Positions 1 to 20,859 of a stretch of DNA of 26,512 nucleotides are shown in pieces. A program made the position numbers and the translations under genes. Each line of letters starts with the position of its first letter. Position 1 is the first letter of the stretch. Location: positions 1 through 26,512 of IMG/VR virus record IMGVR_UViG_2698536335_000001. One strand, written 5' to 3'. Source of the DNA: a virus. Taxonomy: Duplodnaviria; Heunggongvirae; Uroviricota; Caudoviricetes. The notes under the pieces were generated by a model. It had not been told where the DNA came from, did no database searches, and worked only from the letters and a program-made list of their open reading frames with translations.

Positions 1-52
1 AGCGGAGCAGGAAGGACATCTGATGGAAATGGAAGCCACGCAAGCACCTTAA
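1..52 (+). CDS. 3-prime end of an unidentified ORF that begins upstream of the window (last 16 codons, ...AEQEGHLMEMEATQAP)
   Basis: Frame open from the window edge to TAA at 50-52; ordinary GC content, unlike the AT-rich block that follows; too short to identify. Confidence 0.2.
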   Translation, partial: AEQEGHLMEMEATQAP

Positions 53-80: not shown

Positions 81-110
81 TTGGCAGCATTACCTAGTTT
101 GTGTTATAAT
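81..110 (+). promoter_or_regulatory. sigma70-like promoter: TTGGCA (81-86), 18-bp spacer, TATAAT (105-110) with TGT extended -10
   Basis: Read directly: ttggcagcattacctagtttgtgttataat, 45 bp upstream of the ATG at 155. Confidence 0.5.
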
Positions 111-154: not shown

Positions 155-334
155 ATGAATAAAATGGTGAGTAATATTATCATTTCTTTTATTTTATTTG
201 TTACTATAGTGGTGTTATTGTTTTTTATTCTTGAGATAAAAGATTTAATTATCAATTACTATGTCTTTTTATTAATACCTGCATTATGCGTACTGGCTGC
301 ATTCAAGATTATTAAGGAAAGAGTAAATGTTTGA
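155..334 (+). CDS. small hydrophobic membrane peptide, 59 aa (MNKMVSNIIISFILFVTIVVLLFFILEIKDLIINYYVFLLIPALCVLAAFKIIKERVNV); absent from the ORF track
   Basis: ATG at 155 preceded by AAGAGG (143-148); two hydrophobic helices; TGA at 332-334 overlaps the ATG (327) of the next gene. Confidence 0.45.
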   Translation: MNKMVSNIIISFILFVTIVVLLFFILEIKDLIINYYVFLLIPALCVLAAFKIIKERVNV

Positions 335-1409
335 AACATATTTAACGTATAACACAATTCTTTTGTGTGGCGTATTAATATCATCAATCATTTGTTTTAT
401 TAATAGTGGTAAAGGCGTGGTTTACTTGCTATTATTTATGGCCCTTTTTATACCTGCCGCCATTCGGTACGGAGTTGGTTTAGATTTCTTTAATTATGTT
501 GATATTTTTAACAACCCAGAATATTACCAAGGCCAAATAGAAATAGGATTTTATTTAATTGTAAAGATTCTATCAACCACTGGATTTGGGTATCAAGCAT
601 TATTTGTATTATGCTCAGCGTTAACTGTAATCTTCTTTATGCTTTCAATAGAAAGAGATTCAGCATGGGCTTCTGTATTGATTTTCATATGCACTCTTTA
701 CCTGTCATCCTATTGTTTGTTAAGACAAGCTTTAGCGGTTAGTATTCTGATGTATAGTTGTAGACTATGGATTAATGATAAAAAATTAAATTCTATTATC
801 ATTATGCTGATTGCATGCTCAATGCATTACTCTGCCATACTTTTTGCTCCTTTATTGATAGCGTCCAGTGTATTCAGGCTTACTACGCTTCGTACATTAT
901 TTATAATGGGGTTTATTTCTATATTTGTTTTTGCGCTTCATGGTGTTGATTTGATATTTAATAATGAAATGTTTTTAAATTCAAAATATGGCTCATATGT
1001 TTCTTCTGGTTTCAATAAAGAAACTCAAATCGGAACCGGAGTTGGGGTTATAATACAAATATTAATTCCTGTATCCGTTGCTTTAATGGCGAATAGAATT
1101 TTAGAAATCAATAATAGATACAACATTGTGATATTCACAACGACTGCATTTTTTGCATCTTATCTACTTGCGACTCAAGTATATATATTTGGAAGAATGG
1201 CAGATGTTTTCTCTTTTTCTTTGGTTTTTGCTGCGCCTATTCTTCTTAGGTCAGCAAAAAGCAATATATCAAAGATAGTTTTTGTTGGTATGATTTGTCT
1301 TTACGTTCCTGTCATGCAGGCCACAATAGCAAATAATAACTTTAAAGCCAACGAACTTTCTGGTTCTGGGCTTGGGATATCTCCTTATAAAACTGTTTTT
1401 GATAAATAG
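327..1409 (+). CDS. polytopic membrane protein, EpsG/Wzy-like polysaccharide (O-antigen) polymerase candidate
   Basis: 360 aa with about ten hydrophobic segments; RYGVGLDFFNY resembles the EpsG-family R-x-x-G-x-D-x-x-x-Y signature (from memory); AT-rich codon usage; AAGGA RBS at 314-318. Confidence 0.65.
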   Translation: MFETYLTYNTILLCGVLISSIICFINSGKGVVYLLLFMALFIPAAIRYGVGLDFFNYVDIFNNPEYYQGQIEIGFYLIVKILSTTGFGYQALFVLCSALTVIFFMLSIERDSAWASVLIFICTLYLSSYCLLRQALAVSILMYSCRLWINDKKLNSIIIMLIACSMHYSAILFAPLLIASSVFRLTTLRTLFIMGFISIFVFALHGVDLIFNNEMFLNSKYGSYVSSGFNKETQIGTGVGVIIQILIPVSVALMANRILEINNRYNIVIFTTTAFFASYLLATQVYIFGRMADVFSFSLVFAAPILLRSAKSNISKIVFVGMICLYVPVMQATIANNNFKANELSGSGLGISPYKTVFDK

Positions 1410-1460: not shown

Positions 1461-3725
1461 TCAGATCCTCTGAGTACCAGCAAGAATGACATCAAAAGCA
1501 GCGTAGCTTAACGTTGCCGGGTTTATGACTGCCCCTGATGCATCCTTAACTTTTATAATCACTGAAGTACCCCCATCCAAGACGGCCATGTATGAGTGTA
1601 TTGTGTCAACTGTAGGGCTCGCTATTACGTGGGTTTTAGTATACCAGTTCTTCTTTATTGGTATCCTGATGCAAGGGACTGCTGTATCAATAACTGGTGT
1701 TCCAAACACACTACTTCCATATGATGTAGATAACACGCCTGCCGTGAAAGTGAAACTGCACAGATCCATTCCAACAGGATTTACTTGTGAAGAGTTGCTT
1801 CCATAAGCGCTTCCTGCACCGACAGATTTAAAGTTGGTTACAGCTTCAGGGTTTCTAAGTGTTAGAATGTGAGGAACGCTTGTAGTATCCTCTTCTCTTA
1901 GCATTGCTATAGCTGGCACAGCCGAATCATTCATTAATGCCATACCCTGCGCTTCTTCTCCATATACAACGCTCCAAAAATCAACTAATTCCCCAGTGTA
2001 TTTGAACACATATATACCGTTATCGGAAAGGAAGTGGATAAATCCACCGTGCGCAACCATACCTTGAGGATTTCCATCAAATGAAGCGACAGGATACTCA
2101 AAGGAACTAATTAGTTGCTTGGAATTAATATCAATAATTGAGAAAAATTCATTTGGTGAACCAACTTTCCCAGTTGCAAGAACAAGCAAATCATGCTCAT
2201 TATCGATGCTGATGGTTGCTCCCATGCCGTACTGAGTTAAATCCCATGTTTCTGTAATTGATTTTCCATCAGTAGCAAGGATGTAAACTTCAGCATCAAA
2301 TTCTGAACCACCAGAGCTTACATATACTCTACCATCTAATTTACGCCATGCAGCGGAACTTGCATGTTTTAAAGGCAGTGTAACCTGACCATATGAGTTA
2401 TCAACGCTACCGTCTCTTTCATATCTAAACACTTGTCCGTTAACACCACCAATATCATATCCAACTATGAATTTTCCAATGGAGAAATCATACGCTAATC
2501 CTTGTGGTCTTTTTTGAGTACCAGTTGTTGGGACGGAAGTGATAGTAAATTCATAAAATCTTCTAAAAACATCGTTATCACCAAACGCCCCCCCTCTTCC
2601 TGGTGCAAGAATGCTATTTGCTCTTGGGTTGCTGTAATTTCCAGCCATTATAACTTTAGCACCCGAAACAGAAGAAATACCGCTAGTTCCGTCTGGTACA
2701 TATATGACACCCGAGGCAAGCATTGTTGGACCAGAAAGCGTTAATGGAAGTGAATATTTTTTTGATGCTGACAGCGCAGATTCTATAGCGTGAGTATCAT
2801 CATCTATACCATTTCTTTTTGCTCCGAAAAACTCAGGAGCTACATCATTGCACTCTCTCTTCCATCTATTACCACCAGATGTAACTATTGTTACGCCGTC
2901 ATCATCAATAGTTGTTGAATCAGTATTGTCGTAATAAAAGTAACCACCTCCAGTACCAGATCCTAATGTATGCTCTAAAACAAATATTCTTTGCTGTGTA
3001 TTTGTTGGTTCTATATTGCGTAAATTAGAAATGGAAGCACAATTGCCAATAAGTTTTAAGCCATCACTTGCTGCTAGCTGAATCATTACATCGGATGCAG
3101 ATCCAGACTGTGGAAGGACCATAATAGGATTACCATTGTCATCCATCGCTACCACTTTGTTTTTACGATTCTCAGCATCAGGCAAACTTGGTATTGGCTC
3201 AGGCGTTCTAAGAGTACGACCTAGATTTGTATTAGCAAGTTTATCGACATAATTTTTAGTCGCTGCATCCTGAGGGCGCGAAGGATCACGCAGGTTTCTG
3301 ATGTAGTTGTTAATAGCGTCATAATAATTCGCCACAAAAGATGGCTTACGAAGAGCAAGTGAAAACCAACTTCTTACCTGCTGGATCAGCATCGTTAGCT
3401 TATCAAACGCGTCCTCGTGCACCTCAGCAAAAAACTTACCCTGGTTTCTAAGATCTGTTTCCTGAGTAACCGGTAGTTCTCGCAATATGGAAATCTGATA
3501 ACCATTAGCCAGTGCCTTCGACAGAATTACATTGCCACCGTTATACCCTCCCGCACCAGTGACTGTGTAATCAGTATCAAGATCCAGCACAGTGATATTC
3601 TCGTCAAGGTCAATCACCTGCACTACTAAATCAGATTTATTGAAAACCCTAAAGGTATAAGGGAATGATGTCGTAACGCCGTTACCGGTGTATTCGTTGT
3701 GGTTAACTTCGGTTGAGACCGTCAT
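1461..3725 (-). CDS. tailspike / tail fibre protein, 754 aa
   Basis: N-terminal ~150 aa resemble the T7 gp17-type tail-attachment domain (by recall); long Gly/Ser/Thr/Asn-rich C-terminal part typical of beta-helical receptor-binding domains; GGAGA RBS; last gene of the virion operon. Confidence 0.8.
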   Translation of the reverse strand: MTVSTEVNHNEYTGNGVTTSFPYTFRVFNKSDLVVQVIDLDENITVLDLDTDYTVTGAGGYNGGNVILSKALANGYQISILRELPVTQETDLRNQGKFFAEVHEDAFDKLTMLIQQVRSWFSLALRKPSFVANYYDAINNYIRNLRDPSRPQDAATKNYVDKLANTNLGRTLRTPEPIPSLPDAENRKNKVVAMDDNGNPIMVLPQSGSASDVMIQLAASDGLKLIGNCASISNLRNIEPTNTQQRIFVLEHTLGSGTGGGYFYYDNTDSTTIDDDGVTIVTSGGNRWKRECNDVAPEFFGAKRNGIDDDTHAIESALSASKKYSLPLTLSGPTMLASGVIYVPDGTSGISSVSGAKVIMAGNYSNPRANSILAPGRGGAFGDNDVFRRFYEFTITSVPTTGTQKRPQGLAYDFSIGKFIVGYDIGGVNGQVFRYERDGSVDNSYGQVTLPLKHASSAAWRKLDGRVYVSSGGSEFDAEVYILATDGKSITETWDLTQYGMGATISIDNEHDLLVLATGKVGSPNEFFSIIDINSKQLISSFEYPVASFDGNPQGMVAHGGFIHFLSDNGIYVFKYTGELVDFWSVVYGEEAQGMALMNDSAVPAIAMLREEDTTSVPHILTLRNPEAVTNFKSVGAGSAYGSNSSQVNPVGMDLCSFTFTAGVLSTSYGSSVFGTPVIDTAVPCIRIPIKKNWYTKTHVIASPTVDTIHSYMAVLDGGTSVIIKVKDASGAVINPATLSYAAFDVILAGTQRI

Positions 3726-3901: not shown

Positions 3902-3920
3902 ATTGCATGGAGAAGATAAG

Positions 3921-4178
3921 ATGCAGCAGTATCACTATCCACTGGAAGACGGATTTACCGAAAGGATTCACACGCCGGGAGGCGTCAGGTCACTGGTGGA
4001 GGGATCGCACTTGATGAAATTACTCCGGGATCTCGATAAGGATGGATTTAATGTCGATGGCCCACTTGCCGAACTGACTGCACTGATTAACTACGTCACC
4101 AGCTCACAGATGTCTATGCAGGATCTGCAAACACATCTCGACTATTGTGCCAAACAATTACGAAAACAAATCACATAA
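3921..4178 (+). CDS. SOS-regulated hypothetical protein, 85 aa, acidic (MQQYHYPLEDGFTERIHTPGG...)
   Basis: ATG at 3921 with GGAGA RBS (3909-3913); the track start at 3903 is a TTG extension; LexA box immediately upstream; convergent with the virion operon. Confidence 0.6.
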   Translation: MQQYHYPLEDGFTERIHTPGGVRSLVEGSHLMKLLRDLDKDGFNVDGPLAELTALINYVTSSQMSMQDLQTHLDYCAKQLRKQIT

Positions 4179-11715: not shown

Positions 11716-12179
11716 TATTTTCTCTCCATGTGAAATCTGTGGAAATTAAGACCAAGAGCACCATAAGGCGCGGCTTCTTCAAGCCTGAATCCAAGCCAGT
11801 GCAGCCATGCTTTGGCAACATGGTTTCGCTCGTCGACGTAGTTTTCCAGGCGCGGATAAACTGCCAGCATCTGCTGCAATACAGGGCGGCAGTGGCGAAG
11901 AAATGTCTTCTGATATTTTTCAATACGGCTGGTTCCTACCAGCCAGGGTGTACCATTGCCACCGATCATTGACGCCGGAGATACACCAAACATGGTTACC
12001 AGTTCTCCGTTCGCGAACCCTGACCAAGCCATAGTAGCAGTGCGAAGACCAACACGCAGCGCATCTTCGGTAGTCATCAGCGATACCGCATACAGTTCGT
12101 CAATATCAGCCTGACGAACATCCGGCAAAATCATCTGAAGATGCTCTTCGGTAGCGGGAATAATTTGAACGTCGATCAT
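11715..12179 (-). CDS. hypothetical virion-associated protein (T7 gp13-position), 154 aa
   Basis: ATG overlaps the upstream TGA (TGATG), indicating coupled translation within the operon. Confidence 0.7.
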   Translation of the reverse strand: MIDVQIIPATEEHLQMILPDVRQADIDELYAVSLMTTEDALRVGLRTATMAWSGFANGELVTMFGVSPASMIGGNGTPWLVGTSRIEKYQKTFLRHCRPVLQQMLAVYPRLENYVDERNHVAKAWLHWLGFRLEEAAPYGALGLNFHRFHMERK

Positions 12180-13495
12180 CAGAATCCCCCAACAGTAAGG
12201 CGAGGAATAACGGCAAGAACAGACAGCGGCAACGGGTCAAGCTGACGGATTTTTACACGTCCGTTTTTGCCCCAGTTACTGTCCAGTTTCACTTCTACTT
12301 TTCCGGTAGCATCATCAACAGGATCATCGTAGAACTCGAATTCACGCTGTGGATATTCGTACCATTTACCGCCAGGCGTAGTCGCCCAGATGCCGCGGCT
12401 GGCATTAACAACCAGAGTAACGGAGGGGATCACCTGTTTTTTGTCCAGCAGCGTTTCCTGTCCGTTAATGTTGATATCCAGTGTTTCGAATTCAGCAGTT
12501 ATTGGCAGGCCGATGTGCACTACAGCCCCCGGAGATTCCAGTGTGACGGCACCTCCGGAAACAACTTTCTGTGGCTCAACATTCGCATCAGAAAGAATGT
12601 TTACGGTCTGTCCTTCAAGATGAGACAGGCCTCCAAATGTCCGGCGCGCCATCTGCCAGTTCGTGGTGGCCGTATTCCTGAGGGATGGCGGGACGTTCCT
12701 GTTGGCACGAACCACTACAGCGGTATTGCTGGTTACAGAAATAATGTCGCAACGTAATTCTTTTGACACTTCATCGCCAGTATCAGGATCAGTTCCGGCA
12801 TAAGGGAACTGTAGTTGCGCGCCGACATCACTACTGGTGAAGTACGCACCACCAGAAACACTGATTGTATATTCCGCGCGATAATCCCATTCACCAGAAC
12901 CACCAGTGATGATCATCGTTCTGTCAGACGTATTTCTTCCATCATAGCTAAGGCCAGAATCAACAAAGAAAGCATCTTCATCGCTGGTAAATAAACGGCT
13001 GGACAGCCGCTCGATGTATCTCACTGTTTGCCCGTTAACGGTTCGGTTAACGACGAAATACACCGCATCTTCATTGCCTTCGCTGATACTGCATGTGCTT
13101 TCATATTTTCCGGTACTGGATTGTGGTGCCCATGCAAAAACCTGCTGATCACGCAAATAGGTCATCACCAGTAATTTACCGTCATCACGAATGCAGAAGG
13201 CGCTGGAGTAAGGGACAATAGAGAAGCACCAGTCAACAATGCTGTGCTTCTGAAAAAGATGATTGGCAAGGATGGTCAGGTCGTTCCCCTGATAGCCGTC
13301 AACATCGAATGAGTAGGCCAGATCACGGACAACACTGCCTTTCTCCTGGACGAACAGAGCAATATTCGCCACGGCAATTGGTGGGACATTGCTCGAGCCA
13401 TTTGATCCCTGAGAGCTGAATGCAAATGATGATGGGGTTAATACTTTGTTCTGGTCGCCGGTGATGACGTACTCACCTCCAGAAGTCAGCGCCAC
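12179..13495 (-). CDS. tail tubular protein B-like (nozzle), C-terminal portion; GTG start or frameshifted continuation of 13486-14649
   Basis: No ATG for the first ~110 codons, no clear RBS, begins 10 nt before the stop of the upstream ORF in another frame; position as T7 gp12. Confidence 0.65.
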   Translation of the reverse strand: MALTSGGEYVITGDQNKVLTPSSFAFSSQGSNGSSNVPPIAVANIALFVQEKGSVVRDLAYSFDVDGYQGNDLTILANHLFQKHSIVDWCFSIVPYSSAFCIRDDGKLLVMTYLRDQQVFAWAPQSSTGKYESTCSISEGNEDAVYFVVNRTVNGQTVRYIERLSSRLFTSDEDAFFVDSGLSYDGRNTSDRTMIITGGSGEWDYRAEYTISVSGGAYFTSSDVGAQLQFPYAGTDPDTGDEVSKELRCDIISVTSNTAVVVRANRNVPPSLRNTATTNWQMARRTFGGLSHLEGQTVNILSDANVEPQKVVSGGAVTLESPGAVVHIGLPITAEFETLDININGQETLLDKKQVIPSVTLVVNASRGIWATTPGGKWYEYPQREFEFYDDPVDDATGKVEVKLDSNWGKNGRVKIRQLDPLPLSVLAVIPRLTVGGF

Positions 13496-14649
13496 CAGCG
13501 AACCAACATCATCAGGTGGCGGATCTCATTAACCTGACGCCCGGCATAGGTGTAGATAATTCTGTCGTCATCCTGCGTAGGATTGCTTTTGCCAAAATCC
13601 TTATAATCCCCAGTACGGCTGGCCCAGATAGTCTGAGGGAACGCAGTCGATGCGGCGAAGTAAAGACGTTGTTGATAATAAACAACAGTGCCAGGATAAC
13701 CGTTAATACTGTTCCAGGCATATTTAGCCCATTTATAGCTGGCATTATCCTCGCCAACTACCTGCGAAGGGATATAGGAAATCACCTCGGCAGTTGCAGT
13801 AGTTCCATTTGCAGCAGAGATACGGGCAATGCCAAAACCACTGTGCAGATATTCCCACTCAATGCCAGTATCATCATCACCGGATCCGCCCCAGCCATCC
13901 CATGATGTGCCTTCTGTATGCGAAGGGCGCAAAGTACCTGTTTTGCCTGCTGTAACGGCGCGATAGTAGTTACTGTCTGCACGGCGAATATCGCCAATCG
14001 ACGTACTCTTACTGGTTTCCCATACCGGCACTGAATCCACTGCAGGCTGTTCCAGATAGAACAATTTGCCTACCTGCTCCGCGCCAAAAATAGAGGCGCT
14101 TGCCGTTAACGTAATTGTCCCGGTGCTGGCGCTGGCATAAACCGTCACTGACTCGTCAATATTGATATCTTCAAATGGCCCGTTCTTCGTTACCACATCA
14201 ACCAGTTGCCAGTTGTCATGCGCATAGCGGCGCAACTCTTTCGGCGGGTATGCCGGGTGAACCAGCGTAAGCACGTCGGCGCTTTGCGTGAATTTAATTC
14301 GGAACAGATCGGCTTCAGTATATGGCGTGGCAATTTCATAAATAACATTGCTGCTGTTCAGCACCAACGCACCATCTTTGATAACGCGCATGTACTGGTG
14401 TCCGAACTCCAGAGCATAAGTCTGAACCGTCGAGAACTGGAACGGGATCAGACGGCATTTCCGATTTGGGTATTTGGCGGCACCGACAAAACGCGTACCA
14501 GGTCGATTCTCAACGCCGCCATACTGCCGCACGATAAAGTTATCGCACTTGCGCAAAGCCACCTGGTACTTCGCCATGTCGATACGACCGTACAACGACG
14601 GTCCAATCTCACCACCGGCAAAGCTGGGCTGGATCCAACTGATAGCCAT
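13486..14649 (-). CDS. tail tubular protein B-like (nozzle), N-terminal portion
   Basis: ATG overlaps the stop of the gp11-like gene (ATGA); combined length with 12179-13495 is about 825 aa, close to T7 gp12. Confidence 0.65.
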   Translation of the reverse strand: MAISWIQPSFAGGEIGPSLYGRIDMAKYQVALRKCDNFIVRQYGGVENRPGTRFVGAAKYPNRKCRLIPFQFSTVQTYALEFGHQYMRVIKDGALVLNSSNVIYEIATPYTEADLFRIKFTQSADVLTLVHPAYPPKELRRYAHDNWQLVDVVTKNGPFEDINIDESVTVYASASTGTITLTASASIFGAEQVGKLFYLEQPAVDSVPVWETSKSTSIGDIRRADSNYYRAVTAGKTGTLRPSHTEGTSWDGWGGSGDDDTGIEWEYLHSGFGIARISAANGTTATAEVISYIPSQVVGEDNASYKWAKYAWNSINGYPGTVVYYQQRLYFAASTAFPQTIWASRTGDYKDFGKSNPTQDDDRIIYTYAGRQVNEIRHLMMLVRWWR

Positions 14650-20782: not shown

Positions 20783-20859
20783 GTGGCATTAGCTCAGTTG
20801 GACAGAGCAACCGCCTTCTAAGCGGTTGGTCGCAGGTTCGAATCCTGCATGCCACGCCA
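20783..20859 (+). tRNA. tRNA-Arg, anticodon TCT (reads AGA), 77 nt with encoded CCA
   Basis: Hand-folded cloverleaf: acceptor GTGGCAT/ATGCCAC, D arm GCTC/GAGC, anticodon stem ACCGC/GCGGT with loop CTTCTAA, T arm GCAGG-TTCGAAT-CCTGC; similar to but distinct from E. coli argU as I recall it. Confidence 0.9.

Follow-up and report, generated by a model that had tools for sequence, protein, structure and literature searches.

What does the tailspike of an epsilon15-like prophage read on its host, and why does its gene converge with that of a Wzy-like polymerase? These questions are raised by a 26,512-nucleotide stretch of Caudoviricetes DNA (IMG/VR record IMGVR_UViG_2698536335_000001, positions 1 to 26,512; hereafter the window), in which a frame of 754 codons, labelled 'hypothetical protein' by RefSeq in Escherichia coli 2013C-4538 (WP_249926414.1), had been called a tailspike in a preliminary description made from the sequence alone. 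The intact frame, its matches to PHROG tail families and its homologues confirm that it is a real gene and no chance open reading frame (ORF). At 99.9% identity, the window matches a prophage of E. coli strains 2013C-4538 and 12089, which are O118:H16 Shiga toxin producers (PMC13182975) and both carry the O118/O151 O-antigen cluster. We consider it probable that the protein joins an epsilon15/phiV10-type adaptor to a platform-tower head of the type found in the staphylococcal phage phi11, that this head recognises the O118/O151 O-antigen, and that the adjoining genes form a conversion cassette.

Predicted fold and kinship of the tailspike head

Residues 205-754 were modelled with AlphaFold2 (AF2) as a monomer, from an alignment of 59 sequences. 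The model contains 20 beta-strands with a predicted local distance difference test (pLDDT) score above 90 in residues 389-629, followed by a helix (626-633) and by a beta-sandwich of moderate confidence with strands up to residue 753; model residues 124-163 score below 50. Five four-stranded blades would account for the strand order, with starts at PQ408GLAY, KH454ASSAAW, MGATISID508N, NPQ554GMVAH and EE591AQGMAL. Judged by strand order alone, the succession of a strand at 389-394, four complete blades (starts QG, HA, GA and QG) and three last strands also fits a closure of the phi11 type, in which the first strand would complete blade 5. The closest structural neighbours of the model are five-bladed propellers, and the top five Foldseek matches in the PDB are phi11 Gp45 and the 80alpha baseplate receptor-binding protein (RBP), with E-values of 4e-10 to 2e-8. 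Identity to the staphylococcal RBP structures is 10-14%.

The phi11 protein has been described as a trimer of a stem, a five-bladed propeller 'platform', a short helix and a beta 'tower', and its propeller cavity, lined by Q165, T211, Q330, M164 and M329, was modelled to hold the N-acetylglucosamine (GlcNAc) of wall teichoic acid (PMC4901313). Equivalent platform and tower regions occur in gp17 of the podovirus P68, which binds beta-GlcNAc-glycosylated wall teichoic acid (PMC6795507). When the 59-sequence family was compared by hhalign with 20 staphylococcal Gp45 homologues, the Prob was 93.5% and the E-value 2.2e-7 over 214 columns; the alignment runs on through the post-propeller helix (phi11 residues ~422-440). 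It pairs Q408 with Q165, H454 with H209, S456 with T211, R461 with R216, N509 with N271, Q554 with Q330 and E591 with E387, placing the polar residues of the phi11 GlcNAc cavity, Q165, T211 and Q330, opposite Q408, S456 and Q554 of the tailspike. Among 54 homologues with identities of 41% or less, there is no variation at Q408, H454 and E591, and Q554 (98%), Y468 (96%), D424 (93%), D508 (92%) and N509 (85%) are strongly conserved; position 456, a serine in the tailspike, is mostly alanine. Residues ~389-754 are probably a receptor-binding head of the phi11 Gp45, 80alpha and P68 gp17 type. In contrast to these proteins, the tailspike starts with an epsilon15-type adaptor and neck in place of an alpha-helical coiled-coil stem, its propeller is smaller (~240 residues versus ~300) and its tower about half as long, and it belongs to a phage of a Gram-negative host, with O-antigen as the proposed target. 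By analogy, the spike is presumably homotrimeric.

The preliminary description had read residues ~160-754 differently, as a right-handed parallel beta-helix of the pectate-lyase-like, polysaccharide-degrading kind. This reading can draw on a motif, FGAKRNGxDDDTxAI, of the form FGAKxxGxDDDTxAI typical of beta-helix tailspike caps (within residues 296-352), and on a match of residues 300-352 to PF12708, the sole pectate-lyase signal that Pfam gives in the tailspike. The phiV10 tail fibre, moreover, shares the 326 N-terminal residues, and PF12708 is present in the nearest partial relatives. The PF12708 match, however, lies below its cutoff (E 0.002; 18.3 bits versus 27) and spans positions 7-48 of a 213-position profile. 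The richness in Gly, Ser, Thr and Asn that had been noted is real but mild, at 33% in residues 160-754 versus 29% in residues 1-210, and is diagnostic of no fold. The confidently predicted propeller, its five-bladed structural neighbours, the Foldseek matches and the Gp45 profile match all contradict a beta-helix, and the 81 homologues described below form a propeller family, several of them with weak matches to propeller families in Pfam. Residues 330-754 also returned no tblastn match at E <= 10 among 50,697 phage records, which implies that the head is absent from sequenced isolated phages. We regard the beta-helix as hardly credible. Nor does the region resemble a non-enzymatic fibre devoid of polysaccharide-binding features, since the head is predicted to be globular, a propeller whose conserved polar pocket is homologous to the GlcNAc site proposed for phi11.

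HMMER searches of 1.84 billion representative proteins identified 81 relatives of the head, most of which match residues ~405-610 only. Many are ~250 residues long with signal-peptide-like N-termini, others are tailspikes with PF18668 N-termini, and some match propeller families weakly (Mal s 1-like, glutamine cyclotransferase, Phage_RBD_prop and SdiA-regulated). Four of the propeller-only proteins of ~250 residues (P0026, P0029, P0038 and P0040) keep all the invariant polar residues, and one relative of this length, Peribacillus glennii WP_117324157.1, is annotated as 'YncE family'; these secreted proteins could bind or process teichoic acid. NCBIfam holds no family for the tailspike, the EpsG-family protein encoded next to it or the short homologues, and a scan of GTDB species-representative genomes found no confirmed relative. 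A more distant propeller-head spike (P0019; locus L016, 1-7217) lies beside a second PF18668 spike and Gp6-like and faintly baseplate-wedge-like genes, a context suggesting that the head family is also used by phages with several tailspikes.

The same conservation pattern invites an enzymatic interpretation, in which the propeller would be a depolymerase scaffold processing the O-antigen by glycosidase or lyase activity, or attacking the ribitol-phosphate linkage as a metal-dependent phosphodiesterase. Q408, D424, H454, D508, N509, Q554 and E591 are 85-100% conserved, secreted homologues included, as would be expected of an active or metal site; enzymes occur among the fold-space neighbours of the model; and propeller depolymerase domains have been predicted in 18% of Klebsiella prophage depolymerases (PMC12491483). 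On the other side, the best structural and profile matches are the phi11, 80alpha and P68 RBPs, which are described as binding platforms with no enzymatic activity reported (PMC4901313, PMC6795507), and most of the conserved residues (Q, H, R, N, Q and E) are common to these binders. The 25 most-matched Pfam families of the tailspike family (E <= 0.1) include no GH43, endosialidase or lyase, and a family-profile search of the PDB found no enzyme and nothing meaningful, the best match being an NHL repeat at E 0.15. We find it unlikely that the head is an enzyme of this kind, and think it somewhat doubtful, if a real possibility, that the propeller acts catalytically on O-antigen beyond binding it.

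Modules, host range and proposed target

Tail, tail-fibre and tailspike families in PHROG match the protein strongly, but over the first 160-350 residues only (phrog_1640, E 1e-155). In tblastn searches of the phage records, the phiV10 tail fibre matches residues 1-326 at 72.8% identity, and the spikes of epsilon15, SPN1S and PAS61 match residues 1-227/233 at 75-80%, with no record covering more than 51% of the tailspike; residues 1-165 also match (E 9e-27) the podovirus tailspike Dpo31 in the N-terminal part that has been solved. By these similarities the adaptor is of the epsilon15 gp20/phiV10 type and would dock the spike to the tail. The conserved N-terminal adaptor seen in the preliminary description is therefore present, but the ~150 residues allotted to it were too few, as identity runs to ~211-230 or beyond. 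Its designation as a T7 gp17-type module is not borne out: PF03906 (T7 tail fibre N-terminus) matches residues 10-56 only and below cutoff (E 0.14; 12.3 bits versus 25.2), whereas the adaptor is 73-80% identical to the phiV10 and epsilon15 spikes.

The resemblance to epsilon15 and phiV10 extends to the position of the gene, after those for virion structural and ejection proteins, and to the placement of a serotype-conversion gene adjoining the spike, ahead of the lysis genes; an O-polymerase system is encoded by epsilon15, and an O-acetyltransferase by phiV10. Within the protein, in contrast, likeness stops at residue ~230 (epsilon15) or ~326 (phiV10), the latter boundary placing the specificity-determining part at roughly residues 330-754. 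Several epsilon15-like relatives are annotated as right-handed beta-helices, unlike the five-bladed propeller and beta-sandwich predicted here.

Against 5.8 billion proteins, the whole C-terminal part (residues 230-754) is common to five clusters only: the tailspike itself, one 675-residue protein with a TSP1/Gp66-type (PF18668) N-terminus and 88% identity, and three 655-residue P22-type proteins with the P22 head-binding domain (PF09008) and 81-83% identity in this part. Alignment shows that the region shared with the P22-type and PF18668-type relatives starts at D212. The occurrence of one C-terminal module on such different N-termini bears out the suggestion that the spike is modular, with an exchangeable receptor part. 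The P22-type spikes (WP_000129925.1 of strain 5735; clusters P0003-P0005) retain this identity over residues 212-754 and have the same convergent EpsG-family gene and small ORF, differing in their P22 head-binding adaptor and in integration at argW/intS. Residues 212-295, with a model pLDDT of 70-85, match residues 7-121 of the CBA120-type TSP2 structure 5w6p and the tail fibre 6w4q; by sequence, the neck (residues 212 to ~330) is of a type also found on beta-helix tailspikes.

Of 5426 complete E. coli genomes, 6 contain head-module DNA and 11 contain the O118/O151 wzx-LicD-wzy segment taken from the 2013C-4538 cluster, all six head carriers included (hypergeometric p 1.3e-17, ignoring phylogeny). 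Two carriers are E. coli strains that make Shiga toxin (STEC), with large chromosomes and an epsilon15-like prophage at guaA, and the other four are genomes of 4.7-4.9 Mb in which degraded P22-like prophages occupy argW/intS; the phage backbones involved, like the integration sites, number at least two. Close relatives of the P22-type version occur in Salmonella enterica. A prophage tailspike cluster common to E. coli O118/O151 and Salmonella O47, whose antigens differ only in the beta-GlcNAc-to-ribitol linkage, was reported in the SpikeHunter study (PMC10370184), and the P22-type spikes probably correspond to it. O118 and O151 are named as serogroups having the rib gene and ribitol-5-phosphate (PMC7685785), and the host O-antigen cluster encodes a cytidylyltransferase/reductase and a LicD-family protein. 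Within E. coli, the six carriers are thus confined to strains whose O-antigen contains ribitol phosphate.

These distributions suggest that the head most likely recognises the O118/O151 O-antigen, and that of Salmonella O47. The polar pocket formed by Q408, S456 and Q554, with H454, R461, N509 and E591 also conserved, would read this O-antigen, perhaps at the GlcNAc-ribitol junction. Binding to some other receptor, such as an outer-membrane protein or the lipopolysaccharide core, would make the O118/O151 restriction a product of host ancestry or of the co-travelling wzy gene, and would sit well with the small number of carrier genomes (six), four of which share the argW/intS site and may be related. 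That explanation is very improbable in our view. The carriers span an epsilon15-like prophage at guaA and P22-like remnants at argW, third and fourth backbones are present in metagenome and other assemblies, and there are the close relatives in S. enterica; the homologous staphylococcal domains bind a glycopolymer. Furthermore, the tight linkage to a paralogue of the host Wzy, described below, is sensible only if O-antigen matters to the phage.

Several observations weigh against recognition of O-antigen by a phi11-type head. The invariant D/H/D/E set would equally suit a catalytic or metal site, and an enzymatically active spike is normally required by podoviruses of smooth enterobacteria and carried by those of the epsilon15 and P22 kinds. 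The model, a monomer, was derived from a shallow alignment and has low confidence at residues 294-384 and in parts of the tower, and the tower itself comprises ~120 residues, or about one subdomain, where phi11 and P68 have two. A single-sequence hhalign comparison with phi11 Gp45 reached a Prob of only 2.5%, significance being attained only with the Gp45 family profile, and PF21311 (Phage_RBD_prop) has no match to the tailspike and matches 4 of the 59 family members weakly and below cutoff (best E 0.0016). A significant profile-profile match combined with a sub-threshold PF21311 indicates a superfamily-level relative of Gp45 and not a PF21311 member. The GlcNAc site of phi11 is itself only modelled, soaking having failed (PMC4901313). 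Lastly, the genome association could be partly clonal, given that the four P22-type carriers share one integration site, and the prophage may be defective in its present host, since an IS1 lies beside the cassette and a structural gene carries a 1-bp deletion.

The proposed conversion cassette and the O118/O151 question

The EpsG-family gene converges with the tailspike gene at a distance of 51 bp. Its product is 37% identical, over the full length, to the O118/O151 Wzy encoded on the same chromosome (E 1e-77), and thereby constitutes a second Wzy-type polymerase outside the O-antigen cluster; it has no tblastn match in the 50,697 phage records. An unannotated ORF with two predicted hydrophobic helices precedes it, and equivalent small ORFs are found at the same position in three other loci (L002, 7925-8095; L004, 11155-11337; L007, 9121-9297). 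The four encode 56-60 residues and align with 24-52% identity and a conserved architecture, making them possible Wzy inhibitors or partners. The number of promoter-like sites in the region, among them the one upstream of the small ORF, does not in total exceed the expectation from shuffled sequence.

Head, EpsG-family gene and small ORF occur together in every context examined, namely four phage backbones: that of the window, a P22-like prophage (L002), a third backbone (L004) and a siphovirus-type prophage (L007). In L004 the head is 88% and EpsG 82% identical to their counterparts in the window, and in L007 the values are 39% and 44%, so both have diverged together; no complete E. coli genome has a counterpart of the L007 cassette. 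The linkage rests on these four backbones, the contexts of P0013, P0017 and P0019 being uninformative (too short, or lytic-type contigs). Among the 5426 complete E. coli genomes, the cassette is present in exactly the six that carry the head. The P22-like prophages at argW/intS, in strains H9Ecoli (L014) and 5735 (L002, 6529-16620), are heavily degraded, and in H9Ecoli (L014, 9143-11935) an IS1 cuts the tailspike to 254 residues and EpsG is intact, suggesting that the conversion gene is kept after the death of the phage. The preliminary proposal that receptor and receptor modification form a pair is upheld by the linkage in four backbones and by the shared distribution over six genomes, all with the O118/O151 cluster. 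In the lysogen, the small membrane protein and the Wzy paralogue would change how O-units are joined, which would in turn change the phage's own receptor, leading to superinfection exclusion, and the serotype.

Carriage of a second Wzy-type gene on a prophage recalls known phage Wzy switches, such as Iap and Wzy-beta of Pseudomonas phage D3, the beta-polymerase and inhibitor of epsilon15, and a phage Wzy for Acinetobacter K127. The tiny hydrophobic ORF that precedes EpsG is a further apparent resemblance to these systems. Unlike in D3, for which such a feature has not been described, the cassette is tied to one particular tailspike head, both physically and in its evolution. We found no published description of an epsilon15-type adaptor, a phi11-type head and a phage Wzy module in combination, and the literature found on phi11-type propeller heads documents phages of Gram-positive bacteria only. 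The SpikeHunter study took tailspikes to be beta-helices, and neither wzy nor a propeller is mentioned in it (PMC10370184). The parts of this combination, the epsilon15-type adaptor, the phi11-type platform-tower head and the phage Wzy conversion module, are each of a known kind.

The cassette bears on an unsettled serogroup problem. O118 and O151 have an identical O-unit and differ in the polymerisation linkage, beta1->3 versus beta1->2; in their review, Liu et al. leave two options, a point mutation in Wzy or an unknown inhibitor with a second wzy, the latter explicitly proposed for this pair (PMC7685785). A 2026 survey of 359 O118/O151 genomes, with serotypes assigned in silico, showed 358 to have the 'O151' allele of wzy (PMC13182975). 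The host wzy of 2013C-4538 (L013, 8834-9934) likewise encodes A292, the so-called O151 allele, though the strain is reported as O118. The substitution does not, therefore, partition the strains, and the point-mutation explanation is weakened. As a concrete candidate for an inhibitor with a second wzy, the cassette could account for the O118/O151 difference; as a caveat, strains with and strains without the cassette are both labelled O118. A more far-reaching proposal, which we put forward tentatively and hold to be improbable as a whole, is that the head is a Gram-negative descendant of the staphylococcal platform that reads the Wzy-made beta-GlcNAc-ribitol-phosphate junction of the O118, O151 and O47 O-antigens, and that the cassette switches this junction between beta1->3 and beta1->2, splits O118 from O151 and excludes superinfection.

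The prophage locus and its wider meaning

The prophage is inserted between guaA and yfgI. Its genes run from integrase and early genes through terminase, portal, capsid, a T7 gp14-family core protein and large structural proteins to, in the annotation of NZ_CP027582, the tailspike, the EpsG-family gene, IS1, holins and endolysin; by this gene order it is an epsilon15/phiV10-like temperate podovirus. The IS1 separates the conversion cassette from the holin and endolysin genes and ends ~40 bp upstream of the promoter-like site (Table 1). Compared with NZ_CP027582, the window lacks 1 bp at ~13510; the deletion splits an 823-residue virion structural gene into ORFs 12179-13495 and 13486-14649, which is either a real inactivating frameshift, marking a defective prophage, or a sequencing error; ten further single-nucleotide differences are spread over 16.4 kb. 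GC content is 0.24 in the small ORF, 0.32 in EpsG, 0.36-0.45 in the spike and 0.50 in the remaining prophage. A tRNA-Arg gene (anticodon TCT; 20783-20859, plus strand) lies inside the prophage, in the stretch separating the terminase from the portal genes. A 91-residue ORF (3903-4178, plus strand) is situated just upstream of the tailspike on the opposite strand; it matches phrog_450 (E 1e-47), a family of unknown function, and has a weak match to the C-terminus of an anti-repressor PHROG.

Table 1. Coordinates of the tailspike, its predicted modules and the adjoining elements in the window.
Feature	Position	Strand	Basis or remark
IS1 end	1-39	.	NZ_CP027582: frameshifted IS1 transposase coding sequence (L001, 11343-12039), reaching window position 39
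Promoter-like site, TTGGCA-18-TG-TATAAT (11/12)	81-110	+	Consensus match alone; upstream of small ORF and EpsG
Unannotated ORF of 59 residues, two hydrophobic helices	155-334	+	Overlaps EpsG start by 8 nt
EpsG-family, Wzy-like O-antigen polymerase paralogue	327-1409	+	Pfam EpsG, E 5.6e-47
Tailspike/receptor-binding protein gene	1461-3725	-	Single ORF, 754 residues, ATG start; stop codon 1461-1463
Short connecting-helix end (~626-633) and C-terminal beta-sandwich, 'tower'-like	1464-1838	-	Residues 630-754; AF2
Five-bladed beta-propeller 'platform' (predicted)	1839-2561	-	Residues 389-629; AF2
Neck: pectate-lyase-cap-like motif FGAKRNGIDDDTHAIESAL, then low-confidence segment	2562-2840	-	Residues 296-388
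Small beta domain, start of mobile module	2841-3092	-	Residues 212-295; precomputed PF27114 'Phage_tail_beta'
Virion-attachment adaptor and linker, epsilon15 gp20/phiV10 type	3093-3725	-	Residues 1-211; PHROG, tblastn

In the closely related O118:H16 STEC strain 2014C-3050 (NZ_CP027472), guaA directly adjoins yfgI (L015, 45563-47774). This empty attachment site indicates that the prophage is polymorphic within the lineage, and the 2013C-4538 lysogen and 2014C-3050 constitute a natural pair in which the O118/O151 question is directly testable. Strain 12867, from the same H16 lineage, likewise lacks the cassette. The spike and conversion genes, ignored by in-silico serotyping, are relevant markers for the typing of O118 STEC and for their phage-based detection or therapy.

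Enterobacterial podovirus tailspikes are generally assumed to be beta-helix depolymerases, and tools such as SpikeHunter were curated with that in view. If the proposal of a phi11-type head is true, a glycopolymer-reading module has crossed the Gram divide along with the chemistry of its ligand, a ribitol-phosphate O-antigen resembling teichoic acid. If the cassette acts as proposed, it would be at once the long-suspected inhibitor with a second wzy and a superinfection-exclusion device.

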